From Carcharhinus amblyrhynchos (Eukaryota): a stretch of 64,000 nucleotides of DNA. Both the position numbers and the translations under genes were made by a program. Location of the stretch: assembly GCA_965287045.1 (NCBI GenBank), contig OZ336876.1, positions 22,196,001 to 22,260,000 of the forward strand, given 5' to 3'. Positions 4,373 through 59,072 of this stretch are shown here, piece after piece (positions within the stretch are counted from its first letter, which is position 1; every line of letters begins with the position of its first letter). The notes beneath the pieces are model-generated. The model was not told where the DNA came from. It did no database searches and worked only from the letters and a program-made list of their open reading frames with translations.

Positions 4373-4705
4373 AGAACAAAGAACAAAGAACAAAATCAGC
4401 CTGGGAAACAGGCCCTTTGGCCCAACGAGCCCGCGCCGCCATCTCAACACCACCAGTCCCCCTACTCCACCCACGACCTCTGTCTAATGTTTTATGGCCA
4501 TCCAGATTGAGGGAAACTGATTTAGGGACAACTTATTCCTGCCAATCAGCCTAACCGCACATCTTTGGGGTGTGGGAGGAAACCGGAGCACCCGGAGAAA
4601 ACCCACGCAAGCACGAGGAGGATGTGCAAACTCCCACAGACACCGGCCCAAATCCATGTATCTGCACAGCAATCAGCGATAGTCACTGAGCTGTCGTGTT
4701 GCCCA
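4373..4705 (-). mobile_element. tRNA-derived HE1/V-like SINE with (TTCTTTG)n CR1-type tail
   Basis: Reverse complement carries the gggttttctccgggtgctccggtttcctcccaca core; tail agaacaaagaacaaagaac. Confidence 0.85.
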
Positions 4706-6294: not shown

Positions 6295-6542
6295 ATCATT
6301 GCCTATGTGGAGTTTGCATGTTCTATCCATGTCTGTGTGAGTTTGCATGTCCTGTCCATATGTGTGTGGTTTCCTCCGGGTGCTCCAGTTTCCTCCCACA
6401 GTCCAAAGATTGCAGGTTAGGAGAATTGCTATGCTAAATTGCCCCTGATTGTCAGGGAGACTAGCAGGGTAAGTGTTTGGGGTTGCAGGGATATCGGCTG
6501 GGTGGGATTGTTAACAGTGCAGTAGGGATTCTATGATTCTAT
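6295..6542 (+). mobile_element. HE1/V-like SINE (5'-truncated)
   Basis: gtggagtttgcatgttct...ggtttcctccgggtgctccagtttcctcccacagtccaaagat; tail gggattctatgattctat. Confidence 0.85.
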
Positions 6543-11120: not shown

Positions 11121-11124
11121 ATTA

Positions 11125-11362
11125 TCATAGAATCCCACAGTGCAGAAGGAGGCCATTCGGCCCATTGAGTCTGCACCAACAACAATCCCACCCAGGCCCT
11201 ATCCCCACAGCTCCATACATTTACCCTAGCTAGTCCCCCTGACACTAAGGGGCAAGTTAGTATCCACCTAACCCGCACATCTTTGGACTGTGGGAAGAAA
11301 CCGGAGCACCCAGAGGAAATCCACACAGACATGGGGAGAATGCGCAAACTCCACACAGACAA
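11125..11362 (-). mobile_element. HE1/V-like SINE
   Basis: Tail complement tcatagaatccc followed by the V-like core ctgtgggaagaaaccggagcaccc. Confidence 0.88.
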
Positions 11363-11979: not shown

Positions 11980-13245
11980 TGTTTGCTGGAGCAGACGAGT
12001 GAAGGAGCAGAGAGAGAGCTAAGATTTTACCTGTTAAAAACCTGTTTAAAATAAGTTTAAAGCACTTTGTTCTTTGTAGAACTGTTTAAAGCATTTATTT
12101 ATTGTATTTACTGCTTTAAGAATTCTGAGGGAGTGGTTAGCAGGCAGTTGTGGGCCATCAGATTTAAATCAGCGCCAGGTTTAAAAGGAGGCCTGGTGTA
12201 GACAGCGGGCAGCGTCTGAGCGGGCAGTGGAGTGAGAGGGAAGCAGAGTGAGCTACTAGGGCTTAATATCAAAAAGGGCTGGAAGGAAAAAAGGCCAGGT
12301 GAGTTTGTTTGAAAAACAAAAAAAACAAAAAAAAAAAAATTTTTTCAAAACTACTACAGTGAATAATGGAGGGGCATGTGATGTGTGGTTTCTGTATGAT
12401 GTGGGAACTGGTGGACCCTAGGGTTCATCCCAGTGACCATGTCTGCAGTAAGTGCAGGTTGCTGGAGGAGCTCCAGCTCAGGGTAAATGAGCTGGCCTCT
12501 GAGCTACAGACATTGAGGCTCATCAAGGGGAGAGAGGGTGCCATTGTCAATGGGGTGCAAGTGACATCCACCCCCCCTAGACTGGCTAACTCTAAGGGTC
12601 AGGGACAAGAGGGGGCTACTGGGAAGAGGAAGGGGGGTGAGGAGCGGAAGCCTCAACCTCTTAATCTGCATAACAGGTTTGAGGTTCTTGCTTCCAAGTT
12701 GGACAAGAACGCGGCAGGTGAGGTTGGTGAGCAAGCTACACAGCAGAGGAGGTTTACTAGGCTGATACCGGAGTTGAGGGGGTTGAGCTATGAGGAGAGG
12801 CTGAATAAACTGGGCTTGTACTCGTTAGAGTTTAGAAGAATGAGAGGAGATCTCATTGAGACGTATAAGATGATGAATGGGATGGATAGGATCGAGGTGG
12901 AAAGACTCTTCCCGCTCAAAAAAGACAATAGGACTAGGGGGCACAGCCTCAAGATAAAAGGGGGGCAGTTTAGAACGGAGTTGAGGAGGAACTTCTTCAC
13001 TCAAAGGGTGGTGAATCTCTGGAATTCTCTGCCCGTTGAAGTGGTGGAGGCTGCCTCGCTAAATATTTTTAAGACGCGGGTTGATGGGTTTTTGATAGGA
13101 GAGGGGATTAAGGGTTATGGGGAGAGGGCGGGAAAGTGGAACTGAGCAGCGACAGATCAGCCATGATCTTATTGAATGGCGGGGCAGGCTCGAAGGGCTG
13201 GATGGCCTACTCCTGCTCCTATTTCTTATGTTCTTATGTTCTTAT
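11980..13245 (+). mobile_element. Internally deleted CR1: 5' UTR, ORF1 N-terminus fused to RT C-terminus, 3' UTR and tail
   Basis: 5' UTR-like leader, ORF 12366-13145, then a 3' end nearly identical to 47115-47614 with (TTCTTATG)n tail. Confidence 0.88.
12366..13145 (+). CDS. 259-aa CR1 ORF1 zinc-finger/coiled-coil fused in frame to the ORF2 C-terminal domain
   Basis: N-terminal CGFCMMWE...HVCSKCRLLEELQLRVNELASELQTLR; junction at ~12742 into QRRFTRLIPELRGLSYEERL...; no stop codons. Confidence 0.75.
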   Translation: MEGHVMCGFCMMWELVDPRVHPSDHVCSKCRLLEELQLRVNELASELQTLRLIKGREGAIVNGVQVTSTPPRLANSKGQGQEGATGKRKGGEERKPQPLNLHNRFEVLASKLDKNAAGEVGEQATQQRRFTRLIPELRGLSYEERLNKLGLYSLEFRRMRGDLIETYKMMNGMDRIEVERLFPLKKDNRTRGHSLKIKGGQFRTELRRNFFTQRVVNLWNSLPVEVVEAASLNIFKTRVDGFLIGEGIKGYGERAGKWN

Positions 13246-13760: not shown

Positions 13761-14492
13761 ACAAAATTACTAACGTATAATTAACTACACTGTTTAATAG
13801 CGGTTGGATCCAATTTAAGGAATGCTGCATATTCTAATATTTAAAGTTCTTGTACCATCACTGCTACTGTCACAGTTAGAATAAAATATCAGGCTTTATT
13901 TCACCAAATGACTTGAGGCAATATGCTTACCAGTATTTTTTGAATATATTCAAAAAAATGTCCAATATGAAATTAGAGTTAAATCCTACTGGTGTGTAAC
14001 ATGACTGGATAGCTGAGAATATACAGCCTTTTACGTTACTTAACTATTTTCTTCCACATGGAAATGAAGTGTACAGTTTAGTTGCCTCAGCAAGTATAGG
14101 GCAAAATATATTCTGTATTAATACTTTAGTAAAAGTAGGATCCACAAAATGTTGCCAAAACCTTTTTTTTAAACAAGGAGGGTGAATGTAATAACTCCAC
14201 AGAGGCAAAAGTCCCATCACCAAGTTACTTTATTTACACCATCCATCTGCACACAGCCAACTCTCCAGTTGCTCCCTGCTGAATGCAAGCTGGGAGTCTG
14301 ACATATCTGCTTTAAATGGGGAGCAGGAGGCTCCCTGATTTAACCATCAATTAGGACTCATCAGATAGCTCATTTGACACCAACCAAATAAACGAATTCA
14401 AATTAACAGACGGACAATTAAAAGGGGCAGCTCCCCAAAAGGAAGAGGGGAACAGCCCAAAAAAAGGCAAAGTCAGAAGGGAACTTAAAACA

Positions 14493-17400
14493 TCAAATCA
14501 AAAGGCGATAATCGGGGTCTATAATGCACCCCAGCCCCTGCGGTGCCCAGCGGGCGCGGAAGGTGTCAGTTGCGCCTGTAGACACTGCATGGTCCCTCAC
14601 CAGGGACACCTGGCTGCGAATATAGCTGTGGTAGAGGGTCAGACAGTCAGGATGGACGACCCTGTCGATCACCCGCTGCCTGGACCTGTTGATGGCATGT
14701 CTCACCAGGCTCAGGAGCAGGGACATGAGGAGGTCATCCTCCCGACTTGCCCCCCCTCCACTCCAGGCACCTGTAGGTCAGGAGCTTGGGACTGAAGTGC
14801 AGACAAAACATCAGTAAAAGATTTTTCAGGAAATTGAAAAGGGTGCGCAACCTATAACACAAGACGTAGATATGATCCACAGATTCCACAAGATTACAAA
14901 AAGGACATGCTTGGGAGCCCGTGAACCTGAAAAACCTACGGTTGTACAGAAATGCTAAGTGCAACATTTCCCCAAGATAGTGCAGGGAGATCCCTCCGTA
15001 GAGGGACCTCCACTGAGAACCTCTGCCACCTAGTGGCAACAAAGGCCTGCCAAGGTGTATCCGGCAATGGGTGTGCAGCAGCAGCCCGTACAGGAAACGC
15101 ATCCACGCAGTGGCAAAGGGCACGGAGGACATTTCCATGAGGCGACACACGCTGTGGGGGCCCTGACTGGGGGGGAGGGGGAGTCTAGGCTTGGGGCCAA
15201 TGTGTCCCATCCGAGCAGGGGAACACTCGGGCAGGATCCCACCGCACTGTTGCGCCGTCTCAAGACAGTACAACTGTTCTAAGGTCTTGGATGGCTTTGG
15301 CCACATGACGGACAGTCACCCCCACACACTCAGCCAGGAGTGGGCTGGATTCATCCAGCCCCCTCCTCCGCCAACCAGCACATCCCCGATCCTGCTCATC
15401 CCACCATCCATGGCCCTCCTTCCCACCAGCCACCTGAAGTTACACGGTTGGAGAAGCAGATTCCTCAGCAGCGGCCCTCACACGAGAGCCGCTACTCCTG
15501 ACGGGAGAGAGCTGTGTCGCGAGGTGACCATGTTCCAGACCATGACGGTAGAAGATGGACAACACCTGCATGGAGGTTGGGAGATGCCTCAGATTTACAT
15601 ACAGGAGCTGCACGTCATAATTCATGCTGTGCCACTGGCAGAAGAAATATGTCACCGGGGCACACCATTGTGGAGGAGACTCAACATCAAGGTATCTCTG
15701 CAGGGTCTGGAGGCAGAAGGTCGCTATCTGTATGTGGAGGCACACCAGACCTTGACCACCCTTCCCAAGTGGGAGAAGCAGAACCTCAGCAGAGACCCAG
15801 TGCAGTCGGTTGTCTCAGAAGAACTGGACAAGGGTTCTCTGACGCTTGTGGCAAAGTTAGGGGGAGGAATCAAAATAACCAGCCGGTACCACAACATGGA
15901 GGTGATGAGCTGGTTTACGACAGTCCTGCGCTGCGAGCAGAGACTTTGGCCTCCAACTCCTGCCAGTTCGCCAACCAGGATTCCTCAGCTGGGCAGAGAT
16001 GGACCCCCAAGTAGAGGAGGTTGGTCCTGCTCCAGGTGAAAGGCCTGCGCTCCTCCGGAAGGGGGTCCGTCTCCCATGGACCGACCAGGAGTCTGGAACA
16101 CTTGGCCCAGTTGATCTGGGCAGAGGGCGCAGCGGAGTACGCCGCCTGGCATTCTCGTATCCTCCGCAGGTCAGCCGGGTCCGTGAACATGAGGAGCACG
16201 TCATCGACGTAGGCCGACAGGACCACCCCTACGTCCGGGCCACGCAGAGTCAAACCCGACAACCTCCTGCACAAGAGGCGCAGGAATGGACAAGGGGCAA
16301 GGGGCAGCCCTGCCGTACTCCTCTCCCAAAGCAAAGGGGTGCTGTCAGGGGCCCGTTAACCTTAATTAGACACTCTGCAGCAGAGTACAGTAATCAGATC
16401 CAGGCAACAAAATGCGTCCCAAACTTGAATGTCCGCAGAGTTCCAAGTAAATACTCATGTGTGAGGAAGTGGAGGGATGGGTAAGTAAGTTCGCTGATGA
16501 CACGAAGGTCGGTGGTGTTGTGGATGGTCTGGAAGGATGTCAAAAGTTGCAGCAGGACATAAATAGGATGCAGGACTGGGCGGAGAAGTGGCAGATGGAC
16601 TTCAACACAGATAAATGTGTAGTCGTCCATTTTGGCAGAACCAATGGGATGAACGAGTACACTATCAAGGGCAGGAGTCTTAGTAGTGTTGAAGAGCAGA
16701 AGGATCTAGGGGTCCGGGTCCACAGGACTCTTAAATCGGCCTCGCAGGTGGAAGAGGTGGTCAAGAAGGTGTTTGGTGCACTGGCCTTCATTAATCGAGG
16801 GATTGAGTTTAGGGGTCGGGAGGTAATGCTGCAACTTTATAAGACCCTTGTCAGGCCTCATTTGGAGTACTGTGTGCAGTTCTGGTTGCCTCACTATAGG
16901 AAAGACGTAGAAGCTATTGAAAGGGTACAGAGGAGATTTACAAGGATGTTGCCTGGACTGGGAGGCATGCCTTATGAAGTTAGGTTGAGGGAACTGGGTC
17001 TCTTTTCCCTGGAGAGACGAAGGTTGAGAGGCGACCTGATAGAGGTTTATAAAATGTTGAGAGGAATGGATAGGGTGGATTCTCAGAGGCTATTTCCCCG
17101 GGTTGAAATGGTCGCTACGAGAGGACACAGATTGAAGGTGCGGGGAGGAAAGTACAGAAGTGATGTTAGGGGTAAGTTTTTCACTCAGAGGGTGGTGAGT
17201 GAATGGAATCGGCTGCCGTCAGTGGTGGTGGAGGCGAACTCGCTGGGGTCTTTTAAAAGACTTCTGGATGAGTATATGTGGTTTTATGGGATTGGGGGTT
17301 ATAGATAGGTGTTGACGTGATCGGCGTAACTCATGGGCCGAAGGGCCTGTTTGTGCTGTAGTGTTCTATGTTCTATGTTCTATGTTCCACCCTGTTGAAC

Positions 17401-19067
17401 GCATTCTCCTGACTGAATGCTAAGAAGGCGCTCAACAGACCAGCCCTTTGGGAATGACGGATAAGATCCCGGGTTAGATATAAATTGTCATGGATTTGCC
17501 TACCTGGTATCGTGGTCAGGCTGCATCATGTGGTCCAGCACAGACCCAAGGCACAAAGCCATTGCCCTGGCTAAGATCTTATAATCCATGCTGAGGAGGG
17601 AGACTGGGCGCCAGTTCTTAAGACACTGGAGATTCCCCTTCTTTGGCCGCAGAGCAATGATGGTCCTCGCCATGAAAGGGGCTTCTCCCTGGTAGCGATG
17701 CTCTCCCCCAGGATCCTTGCGTAGTCGTTCCCCTAGGACGTCCCAGAGCGCCCTGAAGAAGTCCAGCCCCGGGGCCTTGCCTCGTTGGAGGCTGTTGAGG
17801 GTGCCGGTCAGTTCGGCCATGGTGATATTGGCCTCAAGCCTGCCGACATCTTACGGGCTGACCACACAACTCTGTGGGCATCCTCACTGGATGGATCCAG
17901 AGAGAAGAGTGTAATAGTCTTGGGCAATAGCCCTGATGCCCTCTGGATCCTAGACCGGGGAATCATCGTCGGCCCGCAGCGTAAGGAGCTGCTGATGGTT
18001 AGCCCGCCCTTTTCCCAGTGAATAGAAGAAGGGGGAGCTGTGATCTGGGTCCACTTGGGACGAGTTACAGGTCCTGCAGCGCGTCCTTCTTCTCCCTGTA
18101 CCCCAGACGCAGGGCTGGGTCCGCGTCGGGCTGACTGAGGCGTGCCTCCAGGTCGAACAGCTCCTTCTCCAGCTCCTCGAGCCTGGATCTCCGCCTCCTT
18201 GTCGACCCCCTCGTGTACTCCTGACAGAAGGTACGGATGTGAGTCTTGCCCACATCCCACCATAGCCTCAAGGAGGGGAAGCCTCCCCGTTTCCTTCACC
18301 AGCCGGCCCAGAATCGACGGAACGAGTCCCGGAAGCGCTCGTCCTCCAGCAGCGTGTTGTTCGAGTGTCAGTACACCGACCCCCCCTGGATGCAGGATGG
18401 ACCAAATTCTGCCCACACCAAGTGGTGGAGGCCAATGGGGTGCTCGACATGTGCGCCCTCGTAATAGAGAGGCTGTAGAGTCTGAACGCTCCGCCTCCAG
18501 GCTTCACAAAAGTGGAAGTCCTGGAGTCAGGATGGAGATGTCTCCAGACGTCCATGAAGCCACGGGTCCCAAACAGGTCCCTCAACTTCACCAGCGCCAG
18601 GGCGCACAGCCAGGGGCCGGTGAGGTCCTGAGCCTCGAAGGTACAGTTGAAATCCCCCCCCCCGAGGATGATGCATTTGCCCCCTGCGATGGTGTCGAGA
18701 TGAGCGGACACTTTGTCATAGAAAGTCGTTTGTTGTGGTCCAGCAGTCGGGGCCGAGACGTTCAGGAAGTGGATGACCTCCTTGCGGATTGCCAAGTGCA
18801 GCAACCGGCCTGGCACAGGCTCCTTGACTCCCAAGATCCCTGTCTGAAAACGCGGGGCCAAGAAGATAGCCATCCCATTAGGAGCAAGCGTGAGATGGCT
18901 CTTGTAGACCCCACCCCCAGCCACTCCAGGAGCTATCGGGCTTCGTCGCTCGGGTTTCTTGCAGGAAACGCAATGCAGACTTCATCGCGGAGGACCGAGA
19001 AGTTCTGGGACCTGCGGAGCGGTTCACTGCGGGCGTTGACGTTGAGGCTGGCTACAGTCACCTTCTT
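14493..19067 (-). pseudogene. Tx1 ORF2 (APE endonuclease, RT, C-terminal Zn-finger), frameshifted and interrupted by CR1
   Basis: VTVASLNVN, ILGGGDFNCT, KNWRPVSLLSMDYKILA, AFNRVE/HEYL, LSAYVDDVLL, CPFCNLVESVDHIYVLC. Confidence 0.9.
16461..17386 (+). mobile_element. Young 5'-truncated CR1 nested in the Tx1 RT
   Basis: Uninterrupted frame SKFADDTKVGG...GYR*; (TTCTATG)n tail; splits Tx1 peptide AFNRVE|HEYL; ATGT present at both junctions. Confidence 0.95.
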
Positions 19068-19100
19068 GTCAGTAGCGTTGGGCCACCGTCACCACTTAAT

Positions 19101-21109
19101 CTAAGTGCGTGAGGGAGTGCTGGCGCAAGACGCGCCAATCCGCTCCCCCATGAGCCCGTCGAGGATACTCCTGTACCCGGCATCACTCTTTTTCAGCCAG
19201 GCCTGGCACACCCTGGCAGCAGCTCCAGGTCCGACCACGGTCGAGGGCCAGTCGGACGTTGTCAGGGCAGCCAGAGTGGTCATTGATAAAAAGGGGGGAA
19301 GAGGGGCAACTCGGTGGGGTGCATGAGGGAGTTTCCTCGCCTCGCCCCAGGCAGACCTCAAAACTGTCCCTGTCCCACCACTGAGCAGCTTATCTCTCAT
19401 GGGGCTGTCAGCCTTCGACTCTGAGCTCCCCACTGCAGGACGTACAGCGGGCGGCACGGAGACGCCAACTGGTCCTGACTCCCCGCCCGATCTCACCCCC
19501 AGGATCAGCGGAGAAAGGGTTTCCCCCCCCACCCCCGGGCTCTTCTCCCTGGGTTCGTGGGTTAGAGGGCGATGGTGGCCAAGCCCCCACCTCTGCCCCA
19601 GAAACCTCACAGATCCGGAGAACCCTCCAGTCTGAGGTGGGCAATGCCCAGCATCAGAGGTCGGTGGTGAGGAGGGGGGGTTCTTCCTCGCCACTGTCAC
19701 CCAGGGACCCAAACAACGGGGTGCTGCCGCAGTCCCCCAGCAGGCTAAATAGGAACTCTTCTGAGATGTTGAAATGCACCGGGTGGAACAGGACCGTGGG
19801 GGCCCTGCTCTCACCCCGGCCCCGGGGAGTCCCGCTCGGAGGACTGTGGCAGCATGTCTTTCCTGTTCATGCCCTTGCCATCGTCCTGGGGGCAAGGCAC
19901 GAAGACGGGCGGGGACAGCGCAGGGGATGGGACAAACGTGGAGAGGGGTGTAGGCACCTCGATCTCTAAGCTAGGGGCAGGGGGTGTGGGGACCCCCACA
20001 GGTCTCAGATTACCCCTCCCCTGAGGCGTAGTGCCTCTTCTTGAGAAGCAACCCCCTGGCAGGGGGATGCCCCTCGCACTCTGCCCCTCTCCTTCCTGCC
20101 CTGCCCCTTTGGGCTTTCCCTTTCCCTCCCCAGGAGGCGCTGTTTCTGCTGGCTCAGGTTTGCATGCCCCCCCCCACGCATTGACCCGGGAGCCTGTGCA
20201 CCCGTGACGCCGGGCCTAGCACCTGGCACTGAAGCGTCCACGGGCACGGTAGATGGTTTTGAAGGGGGCCAGAAGTGCCCTTTTTCCCCGAGGTAGCTGC
20301 CAGGGTGACTGGGGTAGTGGGAGTTGGAGTTCCGTTCCCCCCCCCCCCCCACTTTTTTGCCCTTCTTATCTGGGGTCTTCTGGTTTCATGGAAGTTCTGC
20401 TCCCAGCACCCCCCTCCACCGGCAGCCAAGATGGCAACTGCTGCCTACACAGCCTCCTCTTCCGGGGGGCCAGGTGAGACTTGGTTGGGGGGAGAGGAGG
20501 CTGCAGTGCCAGCTGCGGCGGCCTTGGAGTCGTGGCAGTTCTTTTTAACGTGCCCCACCTCCTAACAGTCATGATACCGCATACCGTCAATGGACCAGAA
20601 GACCCTGTAGGTGGTCCTCTTGAAGGGGATGTTAAAGCCCCCTCGAGACACTCTTCCCGGCCAAGCGGACATAGACCTGGCGCTGGAAGGAGTACACGTG
20701 CCTGAGGGCAGGGTCATGAGGATCGGTGCCATGCTGGACCTGACCTCCCCCAGTAGATGGAGATGAGGGATGAAGGGTGGGACGTTCGAGATGACAATTT
20801 GACGGATGGTGACCTCTGGGGGGAATGTCCCGCCGCTGTGAGCCCCTTTTCCAGGGCGAGGTGGACCACCCGTTTGGCCTTCGAAAAGAATATGGCCCTA
20901 CTCTACATCTTTGAGGCCATGACAATGGCTGAGGGGCTGACAACCCCAGCCATTGCCCGAACGCAGGTCTCAATGGTCATGTCGGGGTGGGTGTGGCACT
21001 TTACACCCAGTTGTTTGGTGCTGAGGCTGAAAGATGGCAGGGCCTTGGGAGCGGCGGGGGCTTTGGCCTCCGCCATACCTGCATAGGTGAGCCTGGAAGG
21101 CCCTGCCAT
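19101..21109 (-). pseudogene. Tx1 ORF1 (gag-like, CCHC knuckle), disrupted
   Basis: MAGPSRLTYA...GVKCHTHPDMTIETCVRAMAGVVSPSAIVMASKM; degenerate knuckle HDC*EVGHVKKNC at ~20530-20580; low-complexity C-terminal part. Confidence 0.8.
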
Positions 21110-21977
21110 GGCGACGGTGTCACTGTCACAATGTTTTCAATGGGTGCTAAGCCCACCCAAGACTGCCCAGGTGCATGGCAGGGCATACCAATGATTACTT
21201 TTTCCATGGGGTGGGGGGGGGCTTTGCAGGGAGGGGTGGGTGAGGGGCCTCTCTGGCCTTTATGACAGGCGCAGAGAGGGATAGAGAGGGAAAGGAGTGT
21301 GGGTATAATGGGAGGGGGGGTGGACATGGTGTCTCTGCCCAAGTGTTGGGGAACAGAGAGGGAATGAGGGAGGGTGGGGTGGCTGGGGGTCCAGGTGCTC
21401 TCTCCCTGGTATCAGAGAGAGAGAGAGAAGGGGACGGACGGGCAGGAGGGAGGACAAGGGACATGGCACTGAGGAGGGTTGGTGCTCCAGTCAGGAGGAA
21501 GGGGTGCCAGTGTTGGGGGCAGCAGCATTGGGTAGGGGACTTCCAATCTTCAGTCCTGTTGGGACAACCAATAAAAAATCCCGGGGGTCTTCACTCTCCC
21601 ACCCCTATAGCTTCCTGTAGTTCCCCCCCACCTTCCTTTCAGGCACGGACCTTGGATAACTGGGGACACCAGCCCAACAACCCAGTCCTTAGATGTTGAG
21701 AGCCTTCCTTTGCGGAGTGCTGTTCTCCCTCCTGCAGGTGGAGAGCATCTCTTTCCCTCCCTCCCTTCTCCCACGGACAGAGCACCTTCTGGTAGCTCCC
21801 CGCGCAGGATGGGCGGTGGATCCTACTTCCTGCCTTCCTTCCTGTGGAAATCCTTGAAGGGAAGCAAAGGGCCCCTCACCGAGCTTTCCTCTTTCCAACA
21901 GCAACAGCACCAACAGTCCACTTCTCTGCTCATAGGCAGCCATGTGAATGCAGGCCGGGAGATTGCCTGTCTATTAA

Positions 21978-22320: not shown

Positions 22321-22677
22321 ACCTGCTTTAAATAGGGAGCATGAGGCTCCCTAATTTAACCATCAATTAGGACTCATCAGTTGGTTCATACTCACTAGCC
22401 TGGCTGAAGTCATCACGCTCCTCCCCCCCCGCCTCCAAAGTCCAAGGAATCCCCTCGGTTTGCTTCCCTCAGGGGTCTTTTCCTCAGCCTGAGCACCGGG
22501 TCAGCCTCTTCCAACTCGGCCTCTGATGTTGGCGGTGCGTAACAGTTGGGCGCCCGCCTCTTCTGCTGCGAATGCTGGAGGTCTGGTTCCTCGTTCACCT
22601 CAGGTGGTCGGGGAATCGCTACAGCTTCATCCCCTGTGTCCATTTTGGACACTGAAGTCCCCATCAAGAGTGCAGTA

Positions 22678-24457: not shown

Positions 24458-24678
24458 GTGATATTTTTGACGTACAGCTACGGTATTAAATATCGTCAAT
24501 CAGGGCAATATACAAATGCTGAAGCTTTGTCAAGATTGCCATTACAAATTGAGCAAGAACCAGTAGAAAAGTTTTGTCAACATCCTATATTTCTCAAGTG
24601 GATAGCGTACCTTCATCTTAAGTTCAGAGACACACAAGAACCTATCCAGTAATGGGGGATGCTATGGATATGGTTCTG

Positions 24679-24965
24679 GAGCAGCACAATGACAGTGGTT
24701 AGCATTGCTATCTCACAGCGCCAAGGGCCCGGGTTCGGGTCACTGTCTGTGCGGAGTCTGCATGTTCTCCCGTGTCTGCGTGGGTTTCCTCCAGATTCTC
24801 CAGTTTCCTCTGAAAGATGTGCTGGTTAGGTGCATTGGCAGTGCTAAATTCTCCTTCAGCGTACCCGAACAGGCACTGGAGTGTCGTGACTAGAGGATTT
24901 TCACAGTAACTTCATTGCAGTGTTAATATAAGCCTACTTGTGGCACTAATAAATAAAACTAAAAC
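24679..24965 (+). mobile_element. HE1/V-like SINE with non-CR1 tail (ctaataaataaaact)
   Basis: Head gcagcacaatgacagtggttagcattgct...gggttcgg; V-like core; distinct 3' end. Confidence 0.8.
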
Positions 24966-25228: not shown

Positions 25229-25625
25229 AGACTTTATTCTGTATCTAACCCTGTGCTGTACCTGTCTTGGGAGTAAATGATGGGGACAATATAGAGGGAG
25301 CTTTACTCTACCTGTCCTAGGAGTGTGTGATGGGGAGAGTGTAGAGGAAGCTTTTCTCTGAATCCAACCCCGTGCTATACCTGTCCTGGGAGTGTTTGAT
25401 GGCGGACAGTATAGAGGGAGCTTTACTGTGTATTTAATCCTGTCTGTACCTGTCCTGGGAGTGTATGATGAGGACAGTAAAGTGGGAGCTTTATTTAACC
25501 CCATGCTTTACCTGTCCTGGGAGTGTTTGATGGGGCAGTGTCGAGGGAATTTTACTCTGTACCAACCCCGTGCTGTACCTGTCCTTGGGAGTATTTGATG
25601 GGGACAGTGTAGAGGGAGATTTTAA
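25229..25625 (+). repeat. ~69-bp minisatellite, ~6 degenerate units
   Basis: Unit consensus gtatctaaccccgtgctgtacctgtcctgggagtgtttgatggggacagtgtagagggagctttactct. Confidence 0.9.
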
Positions 25626-27156: not shown

Positions 27157-27322
27157 AGGCTGAATTTTCTGGTCCTTCCTATTGGCAGGATCTCTCAGTC
27201 CCACTGATGGTGACCCCAGTGTGGCAGGTTCCCGAGTGCCATGCCCAGCCAACAATACAAAACGGCATCGACAGTGGCAGGACTAGAAAATTTTGGTGGC
27301 GGATGTGGAAAATCGCACGCCT
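27157..27322. mobile_element. PIF/Harbinger-type MITE inserted in CR1
   Basis: aggctgaattttct ... ggaaaatcgcacgcct; interrupts the CR1 RT frame; internal similarity to 7080-7280. Confidence 0.6.
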
Positions 27323-27832
27323 AACTTTGTATAATCCTGTTTTATGAGGTACCTTGTCAAAAGCTTTTTCGAAATCTAAATACATCACATTCACTAGTTC
27401 ACCCTTAGCCACTTTACTTGTTACATCCTCAAAAACCATTAACAGGTCTGTTAAACATGATTTCCCTTCCATAAACCAGTGTTGACTCCATTTAATTATA
27501 TTACTATTTTCTAAATGCCCTGTTCTATGCACCACATCCCGAAATTAGATTTTAGCATTTTGCCTGATAATTTGAGGCTAACTAATCTATAAATCCCAGT
27601 TTTCTCCTTTCTTAAATATTAGGATTATCTTCCGATCCTTGGGAACTGTTCTAGAATTTAAGAAATTCTGAATTATCAAAACTCTGCAGTTATATTTTTA
27701 AAATTCTAGGATGCAGGTCAATGGAACTTCTTACCATTTAATCTCATTAATTTATTCAGTCTTATTTTTTTCCTTTTACTGAATTCTTCCCGATCCTCAT
27801 TCTTACTGGACCCTTAATTCATTTCTGGAATG

Positions 27833-28150
27833 ACACATCTCTCGGCCTTTTGGCTTAGATCAAGTGTAGTGTAGACATGCTATGCTTGGTTGAAGTCATC
27901 AGGTTACATTGCAGCTTCATTTGAAGCAATTTTTAAAAGCGGCATCTCGGCCTTTTGGCTAAGATGCAAATGAGATCAAGCCTTGGAGGAGGAGCTATGC
28001 CGACACGCCAATCAGCTTGGATCATGTCGATCAAGCCCAAGACAGGAGGTGAGAGCCCTGTCTTGTCAGTGTGGATCAGGAATGTCTCAACTTGTTGAGA
28101 ATCTGAATTGGACTTGATTTGATAGAATTGCAATAAAAACACAAAAAAAA
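27833..28150 (+). mobile_element. U2-snRNA-headed SINE-like element (SINEU-like) with two U2 5' fragments and an A-rich tail
   Basis: ctctcggccttttggcttagatcaagtgtagt matches the U2 5' end; second copy tctcggccttttggctaagat at 27945-27965; ends caataaaaacacaaaaaaaa; inserted within CR1. Confidence 0.75.
27838..27870 (+). pseudogene. U2 snRNA 5' fragment (stem-loop I through the branch-point recognition region)
   Basis: Close match to vertebrate U2 TTCTCGGCCTTTTGGCTAAGATCAAGTGTAGT; remainder of U2 (including Sm site) absent. Confidence 0.85.
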
Positions 28151-29919
28151 TCTACAAAAGGACAGACACAAAGCATTTATTTAGTGTCTCTGCCATTTCC
28201 TTATCCTGTATTGAAATTTTATTTATTTATGCCTCTAAAAGGTCTATGTCTACTTTCATTAATCTTTTCCTATTTGCATATCTATAGAAATATTTATTTC
28301 TCATGCTAGCCTTGTTCATTTGTTCTCTTTTCTCTTTCCTTATTGACTTCTTGTTCCTCCTTTGCTGAATTCTAGATTCCATTAACAAACTGTGGATATT
28401 GTGACAGGGTCAACACTGAAGGTACTTGGACACCTACAAGGCGGCAGTTCAGCAAAGCACAGTGCTATGGATGTTTGGATGCTGTGTGAATATGATTTGC
28501 GAATCATCATGGAACATTATTAGTAAGATTATTCCAAAGGATCATGTAAACATTGTTGTGGTTGTGTTATTTCTTAATTCACTGCCAAAACGTCTTTGTT
28601 GAATTTGGAATTGTCTAAGATGTGCTGGCTCATGTAACATAAATATTTATGTCTCTGATGGATTATTTGTTGAGTTCTTTCTTGTCAGTCACGCTGCACA
28701 TAGGTTAACGTCAATTAATTCTACCTGCATGAGCAAGCTACATAGTTTCAGATGGAAATTACAGCTTTGATAGGGTGTAAAAGCGATATCAGCAGATTTC
28801 CAAGCTGTTTTACATTGGCACATCAATGCAAAGTTGTAATATTCCACAAAGAAGGTCTGATCTGCTAATGCCTGCTTCATGGCACCATGAAAGTTAAAAT
28901 TTTCACCCTATATGTTAGAGTCTGGCCAATATTCACACTGATTGTAAGTCTACCTCTGGCCAATATTTCTGTCTCAGTTCAAGATTTACATAGTACAGGA
29001 AGGCTTTGATATTCGCAGTTTAGTGCTGTCATTGTACTGAATGTGGCTGGGGATTTAGTTAACAAGACTTGGAATAAATCAGTGAGTCCATTCAATTATA
29101 CACATGCTGTATTAAAAATCTGTGAATGGCTGAATAATTAATGGTGCAATGGTCTATTCATCATCCATACTGTTCCCAGTACAGACTCCACCAGAATCCT
29201 CATCAGTCTGTATGTCATTCCTTCACAACGCTGCTCTTTGCCAGTATCTCTCAGTCTATTCTCATGTGCTGCTGAACTTGGCCTCCACTGATTGACAATC
29301 TTCCTAGTGGCCTTTGGTATTAGGCAACCCCTTCAACCTGTTGTCAACCGAGCCTAATAAGGATAATACCAGGCACAATTGTTTTGATCTAGGCAATGGA
29401 TTTGGTTACAACATGGGCACACCAAACCCAATCAACCCTGCAAACTCTTCCACATTAAAATTGTGCCACTGGTTCCACAAGCTGGTCAAACAACCAGCCT
29501 GATGTAATCATACTCACCAAATAATACCTTACAACCAATGGAGATCCCTTCATTATCATTTTTGAATATTTTCTGTCTCACCAGCAGGACAGACACATAC
29601 AGTAGTGGTGGCATAGTGGTATACAGTTGGGAGGGAGTGACCTTGGGTGTCCTCAAGTGTCCTTGACTATGGAGCTCGTAAAGTCTCATAGCATCAGGTC
29701 ATTGTGAACAAGAAAACCTCGTGCTGATTACCACTGACTGTCCTCTCTGAACTGCTGAGTCAATACTCGTCCATGTTGAATTCTATTGTGAAGAAGCACT
29801 GAAGGTAGCAATGGCATAGAATATACACTGGGTGGAGAACTTCAATGTCCATCACTAATACTGGCTCAGTAGCACTGTTACTGACTAAGCTGGCTGAGTC
29901 CTGAAGGATATCTCCTTTA

Positions 29920-32134
29920 CGATAGCATTGGAAAGAGATAGGATCAGGCAAGCTAGGAAAGTGTTTATCTGCAATAAGGGGAAATATGAAGGCATCGGGC
30001 AGGAAATTAGATGAGTAAATTGGAAGGAGGTGTTCTTGGGGAAAAGTACCGAAGGAAGGTGGCGGATTTTCAAGGAATGTTTGCCTGGAGCTCTGCACGA
30101 CAATGTTCCGATGAGACAGGGAGGTTTTGGTAGGTTACGGGAACCGTGGCGCATGAAGGTTGTAATGAACCTAGGCAAAAAGAAAAAAAGGCGTACAGAA
30201 GTTTAAGAGAGCTAGGAGATGTTAGGGATCTAGAGGAGTATACGGGTTGTAGGAAGGAACTTAAAAAGGAAATTAGGAGAGCCAGAAGGGGTCACGAGAA
30301 GGCCTTGGTGGGTAAGATTAAGGAGAACCCTAAGGCGTTCTACAAATATGTGAAGAGTAAAAGGAAGAGATGCGAAGGAATAGGACCTATAAAATGTGAA
30401 GGTGGGAAAGTTTGTGCGGAACCGGTAGAAATGGCTGAGGTGCTTAATGAATACTTTACCTCGGTATTCACGATGGAAAATGATCTGGATGGTTGTACTG
30501 CAGGTTTGCGGCGGACTGAAAAGATTGAGTATGTGGACATTAAGAAAGAGGATGTGTTGGAAATTTTGAATAGCATCAAGATAGATAAGTCGCCAGGACT
30601 GGATGAGATGTACCCCAGGTTACTGTGGGAGGTGAGGGAGGTGATTGCAGAGCCCCTGGCGATGATCTTTGCATCGTCGATGGAGACGGGTGAAGTTCCG
30701 GAGGATTGGAGGATTGCGGATGTGGTTCCTATTTTCAAGAAAGGGAACAGGGATAGCCCGGGAAATTACCGACCGGTGAGTCTAACCTCAGTGGTTGGTA
30801 AGTTGATGGAAAAGATCCTGAGGGACAGGATTTATGAACATTTAGAGAAGTTTATTATGCTCAAAAGTAGTCAGCATGGCTTTGTCAAGGGCAGGTCATG
30901 TGTTACAAGCCTCGTTGAGTTCTTTGAAAATGTGACTAAACACATTGATGAAGGAAGAGTGGTAGATGTGGATGATATGGACTTCAGTAAGGCATTCGAT
31001 AAGGTCCCCCATGCAAGACTTCTTGAGAAAGTGAGAGGGCATGGGATCCAAGGGGCTATGGCTTTGTGGATCCAGAACTGGCTTGCCCATAGAAGGCGGA
31101 GAATGGTTGCGGATGAGTCTTTTTCTGCATGGAGGTTGGTCACCAGTGGAGTGCCCCAGGGATCTGTTCTGGGACCCTTGCTGTTTGTGATTTTCGTAAA
31201 TGACCTGAATGAGGAAGTGGAGGGATGGGTTGGTAAGTTTGCCGATGACATGAAGGTTGGTGGTGTTGTGGATAGTCTGGAGGGATGTCAGAAGTTACAG
31301 CGTGACATAGATAGGATGCAAGACTGAGTGGAGAAGTGACAGATGGACTTCAACCCGGACAAATGAGTAGTGGTCCATTTTGGCAGGTCCAATGGGATGA
31401 AGGAGTACACTTTCAAGGGTAAGACTCTTAGCAGTGTAGAGGATCAGAAGGACCTTGGGGTCTGGGACCATAGGACTCTTAAATTGGCCTCGCAGGTAGA
31501 GGATGTGGTCAAGAAGGCGTATGGTGTACTGGCCTTCATCAATTGAGGAATTGAGTTTAGGAGTTGGGAGATAATGCTGCAGCTCTAAAAGACCCTAGTC
31601 AGACCCCACTTGGAGTACTGTGCTCAGTTCTGGTCGCCTCATTACAGGAAGGATGTGGAAGCAATTGAAAGGGTGCAGAGGAGATTTACAAGGATGTTGC
31701 CTGGATTGGGTGGCATGCCTTATGAGGATAGGTTGAGGGAGCTCGGTCTTTTCTCCCTGGAGAGACGAAGGATGAGAGATGACCTGATAGAGGTTTATAA
31801 GATGCCGAGAGGTATTGATCGGGTCGATTCTCAGAGGCTATTTCCCAGGGCTGAAATGGTCGCTACGAGACGACACAGGTTTAAGGTGCTGGGAAGCAAG
31901 TACAGAGAAGCTGTCAGGGGTAAGTTTTTCACTCAGAGGGTGGTGGGTGAGTGGAATCGGCTGCCATTGGTGGTGATGGAGGCGAATTTGTTCGGGTCTT
32001 TTAAGAGACTTCTGGATGAGTACATGGTATTTAATAGGATTGAGGGTTATAAGTACGCCTAGTAGGCAGGGACATGATCAGCACAACTTGTGGGCCAAAG
32101 GGCCTGTTTGTGCTGTAGTTTTTCTATGTTCTAT
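29920..32134 (+). mobile_element. CR1 LINE, 5'-truncated ORF2
   Basis: 393-aa ORF 30146-31327 with NYRPVSLTSVVGK, DFSKAFDKVPH, PQGSVLGP, KFADD; stop codons downstream; ttctatgttctat tail. Confidence 0.95.
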
Positions 32135-32514
32135 ATTTATGATATTTCTGCCCAATTGGGCCTGCAGCAAGCGGTGAGAGAACCAAAACAGGGGAAAAAT
32201 CTACATGACAGATTCCCATTTGACAACATCGATAGAAATGATAACCATGTGGTCCTTGTGAAGACATAGATACACCTTCACACTGAGGATACCCTGCATC
32301 ATGTTATGTGGCACCACCACCACCACAGTAAGTGACATATTCTGGATCTATGTCCAGTTTTGAGCTGCTAGGTATGTTCCAAATCTATTTGATATCTGTA
32401 ACCTCATGGCTCAGCATATCTCTCATTGTATCATCTATCAAGTCAGGAAGAGACACTTGCCAAGAGCAGCCTTCAGACCTACCTAAAAATGGGGTACCAG
32501 CCTGGTGAATCGAT

Positions 32515-38007: not shown

Positions 38008-38250
38008 AGAACAAAGAACAAAACAGCACGGGAAACAGGCCCTTCGGCCCAACAAGCCCGCGCCGCCAGTTTAACAAAGGATGTGCAGGTTAGGTTGATA
38101 GGCTATGCTAAATTGCCCCTTAGTATCGGGGGATTAGCAGAGTAAATACATTGGTTATGGGGATAGAGCCTGGATGGGATTTTTGTTGATGGAGGTTTGA
38201 TGCACTGCACTCCTTCTGCACTGTAGGGATTCTATGATTCCATGAATTAT
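38008..38250. mobile_element. Inverted SINE/CR1 tail (38008-38075, -) joined to an HE1-like SINE 3' half (+)
   Basis: agaacaaagaacaaaacagcacggg... followed by gatgtgcaggttaggttg...gggattctatgatt. Confidence 0.7.
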
Positions 38251-38459
38251 GAAGTGAAATGTGCCAGATTAATCCAGATTAGCTGTAACCTAATGTCTTC
38301 ATCAAAAGCTTCAACATCTGATCAAATGTTTGTATCATTCACAAACTCATCTTCAACAAAAAGAGTGAAGAGTAATAGTCTGAAACATTGATCCTTGTGG
38401 GACTCCACTCATATGCTCAGAGTCATTACCACTAAAAACAATGGTTATAATACCTTTAG

Positions 38460-42409: not shown

Positions 42410-42730
42410 TATCTGAGTCAGTTATTATAGTGTGGAGTTTGCACATTCTCCTCCTGTCTGTGTGGGTCTCACAACCCCTCTGTGGAGTTTGCACATTGTC
42501 CTCATGCCTGCGTGGGTTTCCTCCGGGTACTCCAGTTTCCTCCCACAGTCCAAAGATGTGCGGGTTAGGTTGATTGGCCATGCTAAGAAATTGTCCCTTA
42601 GTGTTGAGGTTAGAGGGGTTAGTGTGTATAATATGTCAGGATATGGGGGTAGGACCTGGGTGGGATTGTGTTCGGTGCAGACTTGATGGGCCGAAGGGCC
42701 TCTTTCTGCACTGTAGGGTTCTATGATCTG
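42410..42730 (+). mobile_element. HE1/V-like SINE with internal partial duplication
   Basis: gtggagtttgcacatt occurs twice (42431, 42482); tail ggttctatgatc. Confidence 0.85.
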
Positions 42731-43900: not shown

Positions 43901-44396
43901 AGCAAATCTGGGATACTTCCAAAGGTGCTGACAGCCCTGGGCTGCTATTCTTCCTTCGCCACCTTAATGAAATGTGATGCTGCTAGTGTCTTATTGGCAG
44001 CTATTTGAATACCACCCCACTGTAAGCCTGACAGTGGGAGAGAATGCAGCCTTGAATGTCACAAATACAGTTCACATTTCTTGTTTTGGATCCCCCATTT
44101 CAAATGCTTCTTTGGCCACGTCTCAAACTATTTCTATTTTTTAGTTGCCATTTATTCACCCAGGATGGATAACTGCTGTGTTAAAGTACTGCAGGCTGAA
44201 ATTCCACAGCTCTTTTAACACATTCTGGCTAGCAGGTGTGTACTTCTGTCCCTGTGTTGTCAACAGCTGCTAGATCTTGTAGAGGGCAGAATCTTTGCCC
44301 CTTGATGCCTCAAGGCGTGCAGCCAGGGATACGAATTCCCATGCCGGGGATTTCCCAGACTTTGGCCTACATATGACTCTCCAAGAGGAGTCATAT

Positions 44397-44723
44397 GGGG
44401 CAGCACGGTGGCATAGTGGTTGGCACTGCTGCCTCATAGCGCAGGGGGCCTGGGTTCGATTCCCAGCTTGAGTCACTGTCTGTGTGGAGTTTGCACATTC
44501 TCCCTATGTCTGTATCTGTGCTCTGGTTTCCTCCCACAGACCAAAGATGTGTGGGTTAGGTGGATTGGCCATGTTAAATTGCCCCTCAAGTGTCAGAGGA
44601 TGAGATAGGGTAAATGCACAGGGTTATGGGGATAGGGCCTGGGTGGGATTGTGGTCGGTGCAGACTCAATGGGCCGAATGCCTCCTTCTGCACTGTAGGG
44701 TTTCTATCAATCTATGATTCTAT
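44397..44723 (+). mobile_element. Full-length HE1/V-like tRNA-SINE with TSD
   Basis: A box tggcatagtgg, B box ggttcgattcc, V-like core, CR1 tail tctatgattctat; flanked by gagtcatat and gagtcagat. Confidence 0.92.
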
Positions 44724-45049
44724 GAGTCAGATTGGCCAACACCCTAGTTGAAGTGAAGCTTACCTTGGGGTCCAGGCATCCTATCCTCTCCCACAAGTGA
44801 CTGATAAGCACAATTCTCTTCTTTCTTTTTATGGATCCTGTTATATATTGTATATATATTGGATTAACACATAAATGACTTTAGTTGCTATGTGTGAACC
44901 AGGTTTCATTCACAGTGCTTTTAAAATGTTTACCCCATGCACCAGCTCAGACCTCTACCTTTTTCTACAGTGTGTTTATTTTTTCCCAGAGTTGACACCC
45001 AGATTTAACTAATCAAGCAAAATGATTGTCAATCATAAACAGACTCACA

Positions 45050-48000
45050 TAATCAAACATAGCCAAAATCAACACTGCATCTTTTTCCCCTTATAAAACT
45101 AAAGATCTTATTTTGAATTGACTCATCGTAAACAACAAACGGAAGTACACTGAATAATTTCTTACAGTTCAGCTTGCCAGTTACTTGGTTGCGTGAACCT
45201 GCAAGATACTCAACTTTGAAGTTATACTGATGAAGGTGATCTGACCATTTGTAGGTACAGAGAGGTTGATGGCTAGATTCTGATGTGGCTAATATAGTCA
45301 ATGACTGGAGATTGGTGTGGAGAGTAAACTTTCTACCATAGATACATGTGCCAATGTCCACAAGTGTAGATGCAGGCTGTGCTTCCTGCTTTCCAACAGA
45401 GTATTTCTGTTCAGCTATTGACAACAGCATCTGCCATGTAAGCAATAGCATGTGCTTCCTTGAATATACCATGAGAACATGACTCCAATTATATTTCCTG
45501 AGGCACCTGTTGTGACATACATTCCTGCTAATGGGTTGAAATGCATAAGATCTAGAAAAATGCTACCTTCACCTTTAAGGTGAAATGCTGTTTTCTGTGC
45601 AATTATCTATTTGCATTTTTGTTCACTAGTGTCTAAAGAGTCTCTGCAATTTCTACATACTCAGGAATAAACTTGTGATAAAAATTGGTTATACTGAGGA
45701 ATTATGCCAATTATTTCATGTCAGATGGGACTAGAAGCGTGCAAATGGCTTTGATGTTATCGTGTGTAGGCTTTACTCCAGCTGCTGTCATTTTGTACCC
45801 TAGGAAGTCAATCCTGAGAGCTGCAAATGTGCATTTGTCTTTGTGGAGTATTAAATGGTCTTAATGGCAAGCTGAGTGAGCACTGCTGATAATTGTTTTG
45901 TTTCGGTCTTCACGGAGGAAGACGTGAATAATTTGCCGGGTGTTAGCGATGGAAAGGTGGTAGGACTGGAGGGTCTCAATGACTAGAGAGGTGGTGCTCG
46001 ACAGACTGGAGGGACTGATTGTGGACAAGTCCTCAGGACCGGATGGAATGCATCCGAGGGTTCTGAAAGAAATGGCGGAGGTGATAGTGGATGCCTTGGT
46101 GGTTATTTTCCAAACGTCGCTGGATTCCGGGGAAGTGCCGGAAGATTGGAAAGCGGCTAATGTTACGCCGTTGTTTAAGAAGGGTGCCAGGCAAAAGGCA
46201 GGGAATTATAGGCCGGTTAGTTTAACGTCTGTGGTAGGTAAAATGTTAGAATCCGTCATCAAGGAGGAAACAGCGAGGCATCTTGAGGGGAATTGCTTGA
46301 TAGAGCAGACGCAGCACGGTTTCGTTAAGGGGAAGTCGTGTCTTACAAATTTATTGGAGTTCTATGAGGATGTGTCTAGGGCGGTGGATAGAGGAGAGCC
46401 GGTGGATGTGGTCTTTCTTGATTTTCAGAAGGCGTTTGACAAGGTACCTCACAAGAGGTTATTGCAGAAGGTAAGGGGGCATGGAGTTGGGGGTAGGGTG
46501 TTAGCGTGGATAGAGGATTGGCTGTCAAAGAGGAGGCAGAGAGTGGGGGTTAATGGGTGCTATTCGGATTGGCGGTTGGTGACTAGTGGAGTGCCCCAGG
46601 GGTTGGTTCTGGGGCCTCAGCTATTTACCATTTATATAGATGATCTGGAGGAGGGAACCGAGTGTATGGTGTCGAAATTTGCTGATGACACCAAGATTGG
46701 TGGAAAGGCAAATTGCGCGGAGGGTGTGGAGAGTCTGCAGAAGGATCTAGATAGGCTGGGCGAATGGGCCAGGAAATGGCAAATGGAATTTAATGTTGGC
46801 AAGTGCGAGGTGGTCCACTTTGGTAGGAATAATGGTAGGAAGGACTATTACTTACGGGGCGAAAAACTGCAGCAGGCGATGGTGCAGAGGGACCTCAGGG
46901 TCCTTGAGCATGAGTCGCAAAAACCCAGCCTGCAGGCGCAGCAGGTGGTCAGGAAGGCTAATGGGATGCTGGCCTTCATAGCGAGGGGGATTGAATATAA
47001 AAGTAGGGAGATCTTGCTGCAGCTGTATAGGGCATTGGTGAGGCCGCAGCTGGAGTACTGTGTGCAGTTTTGGTCGCCGTACTTACACAAGGATATTTTG
47101 GCCTTGGAGGGAGTGCAGAGGAGGTTTACTAGGCTGATACTGGAGTTGAGGGGTTGAGCTATGAGGAGAGGCTGAATAAACCAGGCTTGTACTCGTTAGA
47201 GTTTAGAAGAATGAGGGGAGATCTCATTGAGATGTATAAGATGATGAATGGGATGGATAGGATAGAGGTGGAGAGGCTCTTCCCGCTCAGAAAGGACAGT
47301 AGGACTAGGGGGCACAGCCTCAAGATAAAGGGGGGGCGGTTTAGAACGGAGTTGAGGAGGAACTTCTTCACTCAAAGGGTGGTGAATCTCTGGAATTCTC
47401 TGCCCGTTGAGGTGGTGGAGGCTGCCTCGCTAAATATTTTTAAGACGCGGGTTGATGGGTTTTTGATAAGCGAGAGGATTAAGGGTTATGGGGAGAGGGC
47501 AGGAATGTGGAACTGAGCCACGACAGATCAGCCATGATCTTATTGAATGGCGGGGCAGGCTCGAAGGGCTGGATGGCCTACTCCTGCTCCTATTTCTTAT
47601 GTTCTTATGTTCTTATAATCACTGATCAGGTTCTGCTTTTTCCCTTCCATGGACAGCAATGTTTTCAAGTTGGTAGACCATCCCTGCAACATCTGACAAG
47701 ATTGAGGAAATGATCTTCTGGAATACGCTAAATGCTGATCTTATTCCACAGAGCATTCTGCGATATTGAAACGCAGTTGCAAGAGTAACAAAAGCTTTAA
47801 GCTCTTTCCACCATTTCTCTGACACCACACCCGGGCTTAACTAATTCAGCACACAGTGAGCATCAACTGTAAACAGAGTTACAATATTGAACACAGAACA
47901 ACTGAGCCACACAGATTCCCTTACAAAGTGGACTGTGGGGATACAAAGTCATTTTGGGGTTGGGAATTGGGTGGTGTCAACACACCTGTTAATTTCCAGC

Positions 48001-49179: not shown

Positions 49180-49545
49180 TTGTAAAACAATGTCAAGTAA
49201 TTATCTGGTCATTTACTCATTGCTGTTTCTGAGATCTTCTGTATATAGGCTGTTATGTTCGCCTATACCTAGATAGCAATAGTGAATTTGCTTCAACAAT
49301 AAATATTTTGTTGGCTGTGAAAGTAATTTGGGACGTCCTGGAGATATAAAAAATTCTTTTCTCATAAACTCGTGCATTGACCATGGCTAATCCATGTAAC
49401 CCACACATCACTGAGACTGTGGGAAGAAACCAGAGCACCCGGAGGAAACCCACTCAGACACAGGGAGAATGTGCAAACTCTACACAGTCACCCGAGGCCA
49501 GAATCAAACCCAGGTCCCTGGCGCTGTGAGGCATCATGCCGCCTG
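49180..49545. mobile_element. LF-SINE tail (+) followed by an HE1-like SINE fragment (-)
   Basis: attatctggtcatttactcattgctgttt...tttgggacgtcctg; then ctgtgggaagaaaccagagcacccggaggaaaccc. Confidence 0.65.
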
Positions 49546-58766: not shown

Positions 58767-59072
58767 ATGTGGAGATGCTGGTGTTGGACTGGGGTAAACT
58801 CAGCAAGAAGTCTGACAACATCAGGTTTAAGTCCAACCAATTTATTTGATAGTAAACTCACAAGCTTTTGGGGTTTGCCCTTCATCAGGTGAACGGAGAG
58901 TTCTGGCCTCTGACAGAGCATATAAAGCACAGACTGTCTGTGTTATATGCTCTGTCTGAGGCCAGAACTCTCCATTCACCTGATGAAGGGCAAACCCCAA
59001 AAGCTCGTGAGTTTACTATCAAATAAATTGGTTGGACTTAAACCTGATGTTGTCAGACTTCTTACTGTGTTT
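58767..59072. mobile_element. Fold-back Penelope-like element with hammerhead motifs, 13-bp TSD
   Basis: Arms ~58792-58934 and 58936-59076 are near-perfect reverse complements; ACCCTTAAAACTG at 58754-58766 and 59073-59085. Confidence 0.85.
58975..59011 (+). ncRNA. Minimal type-I hammerhead ribozyme-like motif (GAAA box reads AAAA)
   Basis: ttcac CTGATGA agggcaaacccc AAAA GC TC gtgag: stem I ttcac/gtgag, stem II ggg/ccc, palindromic AGCT stem III; mirror copy at 58857-58893 (-). Confidence 0.6.

Follow-up and report, generated by a model that had tools for sequence, protein, structure and literature searches.

The window, as we call the whole 64-kb stretch of DNA analysed here, contains mostly old CR1 LINE fragments together with a multicopy short repeat and one Tx1-like LINE. 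The first-pass annotation had placed it in an elasmobranch-like genome, and the ray and shark relatives of the CR1 frame at 30134-31324 make an elasmobranch source likely. Within the best 120 of 5,519 matches of this frame, the most identical named relatives come from Mobula (77%), Hypanus (75%), Hemiscyllium (69%), and Scyliorhinus (63%), and the identity to turtle, bird, and lizard sequences is mostly about 42-57%. Two pairs of CR1 3' ends (12743-13245 with 47115-47616, and 16462-17384 with 31210-32141) are 96% and 85% identical, respectively, showing relatively recent CR1 activity. The Tx1-like LINE is degenerate, occupies about 14400-21900 on the minus strand, and is interrupted by a CR1; no U2 flank was seen at it. 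It includes an RT fragment with an RVT_1 match (15915-16352) and a frame that looks endonuclease-like by eye and has no Pfam match (18268-18981), and a 67-bp direct repeat (91%; 14307-14373 and 22323-22389) brackets the element. The short repeat of about 250 bp is present in about nine copies (4524-4655, 6330-6522, 11124-11361, 24677-24858, 38074-38252, 42478-42727, 44396-44725, 49376-49540, and 62419-62558) and is probably a tRNA-derived SINE; ARAGORN places a tRNA-like gene at 44388-44476. In addition, a tandem-like repeat is found at 25232-25622, with copies about 120-190 bp apart that are 74-86% identical, and a near-perfect 29-bp inverted repeat at 58901-58967, which is possibly a MITE remnant, folds on both strands and served as control.

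One of the old CR1 fragments is split by a retro-insert (Table 1). Such an insert had been proposed for 27833-28150, and it is real: it comprises 318 bp, is non-coding (the longest open frame has 72 aa), ends in an A-tail, and carries two heads derived from U2. As had also been proposed, there is no TSD, and the flanks belong to one colinear minus-strand CR1, whose left part contains a weak RVT_1 match (E 2.4e-4, frame 27179-27541). The suspected target deletion corresponds to 9-12 nt that are missing in comparison with the CR1 near 9.5 kb. This is only suggestive because further gaps of comparable size (3-16 nt) set the host copy apart from that paralogue at several other places. The bases GACACA at 27832-27837, at the 5' junction, are the reverse complement of part of the segment that the host CR1 lacks, as judged from the paralogue at about 9.5 kb, and could be an inverted scrap of the target. 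The ATC of the junction probably represents U2 nt 1-3, with nt 4-6 having been lost.

Table 1. Coordinates of the insert parts and of the flanking host CR1 in the window.
Feature	Position	Strand	Basis or remark
Host, old CR1 LINE fragment, left of the insertion	27330..27832	-	CR1 paralogues align colinearly over the junction
5' junction, about 4 extra bases, then ATC	27833..27839	+	Sequence compared with human U2; boundary uncertain, few bases
Head 1, U2 nt 7-37 (stem-loop I plus the larger part of the branch-point recognition region)	27840..27870	+	Rfam alignment, human U2
Antisense arm, degenerate reverse complement of 27844-27872	27877..27905	+	29-position hairpin, 4-nt loop
Small hairpin, 5 bp, 4-nt loop	27914..27927	+	Helix probability 0.96
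Single-stranded AAUUUUU between two hairpins	27928..27934	+	Placed by Rfam at the U2 Sm-site position; without G after the U-run
Head 2, diverged U2 nt ~4-37, stem-loop I extended to 10 bp, then a further GATCAAG	27942..27980	+	
Body, origin unassigned	27981..28131	+	Partial second antisense arm 28015-28028; hairpins 28038-28065 and 28085-28100
AATAAA (28132-28137) into A-rich tail	28132..28150	+	A8 at 28143-28150
Host CR1, right of the insertion	28151..28330	-	Plus strand starts with TCT, as does the Keno 3' target

Rfam aligns the U2 model to 27833-28034 with 41.9 bits (E 6.4e-7), in agreement with the similarity to the U2 5' end noticed before; this score falls below the gathering score of RF00004 (46 bits). 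The whole 64-kb window has no gathering-level Rfam match, and the only other match in the insert has an E-value of 1.2. Head 1 differs from U2 nt 7-37 by a single change, A23>T at 27856, and stops, as described by the first-pass annotation, in the branch-point recognition region, namely at nt 37, one base short of the full hexamer. The U2 positions were counted by eye on the human U2 line in the Utopia supplement, so that the reference is human and not shark. The second copy of stem-loop I is likewise present 105 nt downstream with 20/21 nt identical. A 16-mer common to both heads has two exact matches in the 64 kb, compared to 0.53 expected even when three mismatches are allowed. The pairs of the extended stem-loop I of head 2 have probabilities of 0.96-0.97, the following branch-site segment is degraded, and the fold energy is -15.9 kcal/mol compared to -11.2 kcal/mol for head 1 alone. 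A functional U2 gene at the locus was rejected, given the Rfam score below the gathering level and the incomplete branch-site hexamer; a search of the insert for a canonical Sm site (RAU4-6GR) and a 3' box, as features of U2 genes, found neither. The 500 bp upstream of the insert align to CR1, and on that basis an snRNA promoter is absent here; the insert is probably a dead copy. In the predicted fold the AAUUUUU at the U2 Sm position is unpaired between its two hairpins. The chance of RAT5 within the 11 given positions is about 0.003 for a feature that was spotted after the fact, and the Sm-like site is a lead only.

An antisense arm adjoining head 1 had been overlooked. Aligned without gaps, arm and head form 26 pairs over 29 positions (17 Watson-Crick and nine G·U), and none of the three mismatches is A·C. 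Apart from the head's own complement, the arm is the best partner of head 1 among the 127,944 29-mers of the window, the next best reaching 23 pairs. The antisense relation of the arm to head 1 is secure. As plus-strand RNA the head/arm hairpin is more stable than all of 200 shuffled sequences (z -4.50). As minus-strand RNA, 58/200 shuffles are as stable (z -0.49), and as DNA this is the case for 50/200 on each strand (z about -0.7). A palindromic DNA element or MITE was thus rejected because, unlike the control repeat, the hairpin does not fold as DNA. Stem and loop also look short for a pre-miRNA by the usual criteria. The plus-strand fold of the whole insert is matched by none of 100 shuffles (z -2.91), that of the body is no better than shuffles (z 0.10), and the 3' half of the insert is no better than shuffles on the plus strand (111/200) and better on the minus strand (1/200).

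The head/arm helix has probabilities of 0.92-0.96 in the predicted ensemble, burying the U6-pairing and branch-site bases. The first-pass annotation had expected transcripts to display exactly these U2 sequences, which is contradicted in silico: they are paired with the antisense arm and are therefore predicted to be masked and not displayed. Head 2 would not provide the display either, its branch-site segment being degraded and its stem-loop I reinforced in the predicted fold. The three hairpins listed earlier exist (Table 1), with the modification that the 2-nt loops proposed for some of them fold as 4-nt loops. Besides the two heads, other GATCAAG and antisense modules recur in the body, where a third GATCAAG at 28029 can pair with 28113-28119. 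Outside the heads the two halves of the insert are marginally similar (31/1000 shuffles as good), and a simple dimer was rejected, this similarity being only marginal. The AATAAA and the A-rich tail are present at the 3' end as annotated, and AATAAA running into the A-tail fits L1/Tx1 ends better than the reptile and echinoderm Utopia ends of the PMC4640811 supplement.

The two arms of the hairpin have changed to different extents. In the sense arm 1/27 positions deviate from U2, a value counted by eye and entered manually, compared to 11/27 that deviate from the perfect complement in the antisense arm (p 0.002). All nine transitions in the antisense arm retain a wobble pair: wobble-keeping transitions occurred at 9/20 G/U sites and pair-breaking ones at 0/9 A/C sites (Fisher p 0.017). 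The sole change of head 1, A23>T, creates a pair whose partner in the arm is an A. Had the product of a single fold-back simply decayed neutrally, both arms should have been hit alike and would not differ in this way, which argues for a long-lived lineage and against a one-off accident. When neutral decay of a perfect inverted repeat was simulated, at least 26 pairs remained in 66/20,000 runs at a transition fraction of 0.5 and in 580-1288 of 20,000 runs at fractions of 0.67-0.75; the simulations covered fractions up to 0.75, and the paralogues in the window have 0.69 and 0.81. The observed hairpin energy was reached in 20-76 of 1,500 runs. Among 2,582 GC-matched windows of 78 nt, 15 fold as stably as the head/arm hairpin, and 14 of 4,918 windows show as large a strand difference, to be read with the helix itself having been picked out by folding. 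Taken together, the hairpin shows moderate evidence of selection (p about 0.01-0.06, from one copy), and selection on the antisense relation is likely.

Searches for relatives revealed a single copy. By blastn there is no second copy of the insert within the 64-kb window. Translated searches for spurious ORFs of other copies gave no candidate with frame 27964-28095, and with frame 27974-28114 eight candidates, all of them longer proteins and none scoring. The minus-strand frame 27972-28130 has two weak matches among 1.84 billion proteins, which were taken as chance. Both are long proteins whose Pfam domains (FlgD_ig, DUFs) look prokaryotic. For all three frames the negative outcome is a weak one. 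Plasmids, phages, and prokaryotic genomes contain no match to the insert, which is uninformative for a shark element. No Rfam ribozyme was found in the insert at E<=10; the hammerhead core is absent from the plus strand, and one CUGAUGA lies on the minus strand within the antisense arm. Our own HDV-like descriptor, used without positive control, had no plus-strand match, and a loose match on the minus strand only was treated as chance. None of five short insert motifs occurs in ten Utopia supplementary files. In the literature within our scope, which excluded most subscription papers and the Repbase Reports, neither a shark U2-headed SINE nor an antisense-masked U2 head was found, and the passages covered of PMC5786205, PMC4758252, PMC2912911, and PMC3706591 add nothing on sharks. 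The insert may already be catalogued in Repbase or Dfam.

Keno, which targets U2, inserts 37 nt into the gene, where the 3' target begins with TCTG (PMC6136364), and Utopia uses the same site (PMC4640811). The first-pass annotation had linked the insert to U2-targeting LINEs. This link holds insofar as nt 37 is the last U2 position in head 1 and the A-tail is directly followed by TCT, but both clues are soft. TCT is the expected CR1 sequence at the flank: only three bases of the Keno target match, they are fully explained by the host, and the TCT frequency of 0.019 in the window is the chance of such a match. U2 fragments made by L1 are also cut at defined single-stranded positions (PMC5322556), and an end at nt 37 is therefore not unique to Keno.

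With slightly less than even confidence, we tentatively explain the insert as an off-target copy of a SINEU-like retroposon that is short, non-autonomous, transcribed from a U2 promoter, and dependent on a Keno-like LINE of the Tx1 clade, itself U2-targeting or U2-headed. Starting from the anatomy and the predicted fold, we infer a master copy, a partner LINE, a mode of transcription, and a purpose of the arm. The master copy would reside at the 37/38 site of a U2 gene. Starting at the U2 promoter upstream, Pol II would produce a fusion transcript that begins with U2(1-37) and terminates at the AATAAA of the element. A Keno-like LINE protein would reverse-transcribe this RNA at a nick with relaxed specificity, and reverse transcription would run through the U2 leader, leaving no TSD. 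The Tx1-like LINE of the window was rejected as the partner, having no DNA similarity to the insert. The antisense arm would have been retained because it hides the U6-pairing and branch-site bases, so that the transcript either does no harm to splicing or gains stability. Head 2 would represent an older head, neutralised as a reinforced stem-loop. It would be a step further, and we regard it as doubtful, to assume a whole cartilaginous-fish family that borrows the U2 promoter and disarms the U2 leader by a selected antisense hairpin, and that may present an Sm-like site and so enter snRNP assembly and nuclear import.

Some of the same features could have arisen differently. The insert may be the end of a known Keno element, more precisely the 3' end that 5' truncation left of an autonomous Keno/Tx1 LINE, with U2(1-37) attached by a template switch. 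Pairing between U2 snRNA and an antisense-U2 sequence already in the 3' UTR of the LINE could direct the jump, resulting in the order head, short loop, and arm. The junction geometry would be the same, the tail immediately follows AATAAA, an almost unchanged U2 sense arm is combined with an old antisense arm, and template jumps to snRNAs have been reported for R2 (PMC3414825) and for SINEU (PMC4494074). However, the A23>T change of head 1 matches the arm, as would be expected of two sequences evolving together in cis, the second U2 head in the body needs a separate explanation, and the Utopia files lack all five insert motifs. We consider this origin rather unlikely. A one-off chimeric retrocopy, in which a fold-back duplicated a U2 fragment, further sequence was captured, and the whole has decayed neutrally since insertion, would agree with the single copy in the window, and the simulations reject neutral decay only at about 1-6%. 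The unequal divergence of the arms speaks against it, and the two heads and the repeated GATCAAG/antisense modules would require several events, which makes such an accident improbable.

It is similarly improbable that the insert was retrocopied from a divergent U2-like snRNA paralogue of cartilaginous fish, or from some other RNA of the Sm class in these animals, whose 3' end had been extended and polyadenylated. The Rfam alignment spans the whole U2 model, and the rarely expected Sm-like U-run stands at the Sm position, followed by two hairpins. However, the insert has no counterpart of the conserved single-stranded run that follows nt 37, the region of stem II is left unaligned, the Sm motif lacks the G, there is no 3' box, the branch-site region is predicted to be masked, and the hairpin at the stem III position is just a second stem-loop I. 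Least probable is a Pol III SINE with TGGCTAAG and GATCAAGCC, both derived from U2, serving as A and B boxes. Two identical 9-mers of the B-box-like form GWTCRANNC (27974-27982 and 28029-28037) and loose A-box-like 8-mers at 27851 and 27956 are present, yet there is no strict A box, T4/T5 runs are present at 27848, 27930, and 27953, each box motif consists mostly of plain U2 sequence, AATAAA suggests Pol II, and ARAGORN finds no tRNA at the insert.

If the off-target retroposon reading is true, a master copy inside a U2 gene that gives U2(1-37) fusion transcripts should exist. The masking hairpin suggests how a U2-targeting element could avoid a partial U2 that is toxic to splicing, and masking predicts similar antisense arms in Keno 5' ends. 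A family with a selected hairpin would represent a structural solution to living in U2 genes and a testable answer on the transcription of snRNA-headed SINEs; the insert would be a curiosity if it were just the end of a truncated Keno or a solitary chimera. SINEs with snRNA heads have been reported only from crocodilians, and the insert would be a second, independent case with a head ending at the Keno site. It is best called an unusual variant of an snRNA-headed retroposon (n=1), for whose antisense masking no description was found.

In crocodilians, PMC4494074 describes recurrent addition of U2 and U1 heads, target truncations, internal oligo-T, and U2-headed Tx1 LINEs; SINEU was not found outside crocodilians by Kojima 2015, and its transcription without internal promoter was left open. 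With SINEU-1 and SINEU-3 the insert shares a length below 500 bp, the non-coding character, the U2-derived 5' head, the A-tail, more than one snRNA-derived segment, a possible target truncation, and a proposed Tx1-clade partner. With respect to the internal oligo-T and the missing Pol III promoter of SINEU the picture is mixed: T4/T5 runs occur in the insert and a strict A box does not, but the two B-box-like 9-mers do. In contrast to SINEU, it is found in an elasmobranch-like genome, its single copy lies in a CR1 and not in the Mariner-N4 target shared with Tx1-Mar, and the parts of that text covered here describe no antisense arm that masks the head. By its shared features the insert works like SINEU, of which it is at most a candidate member. 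Keno, a U2-specific LINE of the Tx1 clade, resembles the insert in the U2 sequence ending at nt 37 and in the TCT of the 3' flank, but the insert has no ORF (neither APE endonuclease nor RT) and lies outside a U2 gene, and the flank is CR1 instead of the U2 3' target (nt 39 onward), TCT alone matching. Utopia, an RLE LINE, uses the same U2 site, its reptile and echinoderm 3' ends carry AATAAA a short distance before the target, and short target-like flanks are kept by reptile copies at other sites, such as the off-target copies of alligator (PMC4640811). However, these 3' ends are without A-tail, reptile Utopia makes 20-bp TSDs, the insert has no RLE/RT ORF, and cartilaginous fish are absent from the species table of that paper. 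The insert thus cannot be classed as Keno, Utopia, or a U2 gene, because the defining features of these fail. R2 SIDEs (Eickbush and Eickbush 2012, PMC3414825) are comparable as short non-autonomous derivatives with structured 5' ends that are co-transcribed with their RNA-gene target, as the insert's master would be; they differ in that the insert head comes from U2 and not from 28S rRNA, and in that the insert has no HDV-like ribozyme on the plus strand. Finally, L1-made truncated U2 retropseudogenes and snRNA-LINE chimeras share with the insert a 3'-truncated U2 5' fragment at the 5' end, but the tailless L1-made U2 copies have TSDs and no body, whereas the insert combines a body of 280 nt with a second head, an antisense arm, and a tail.
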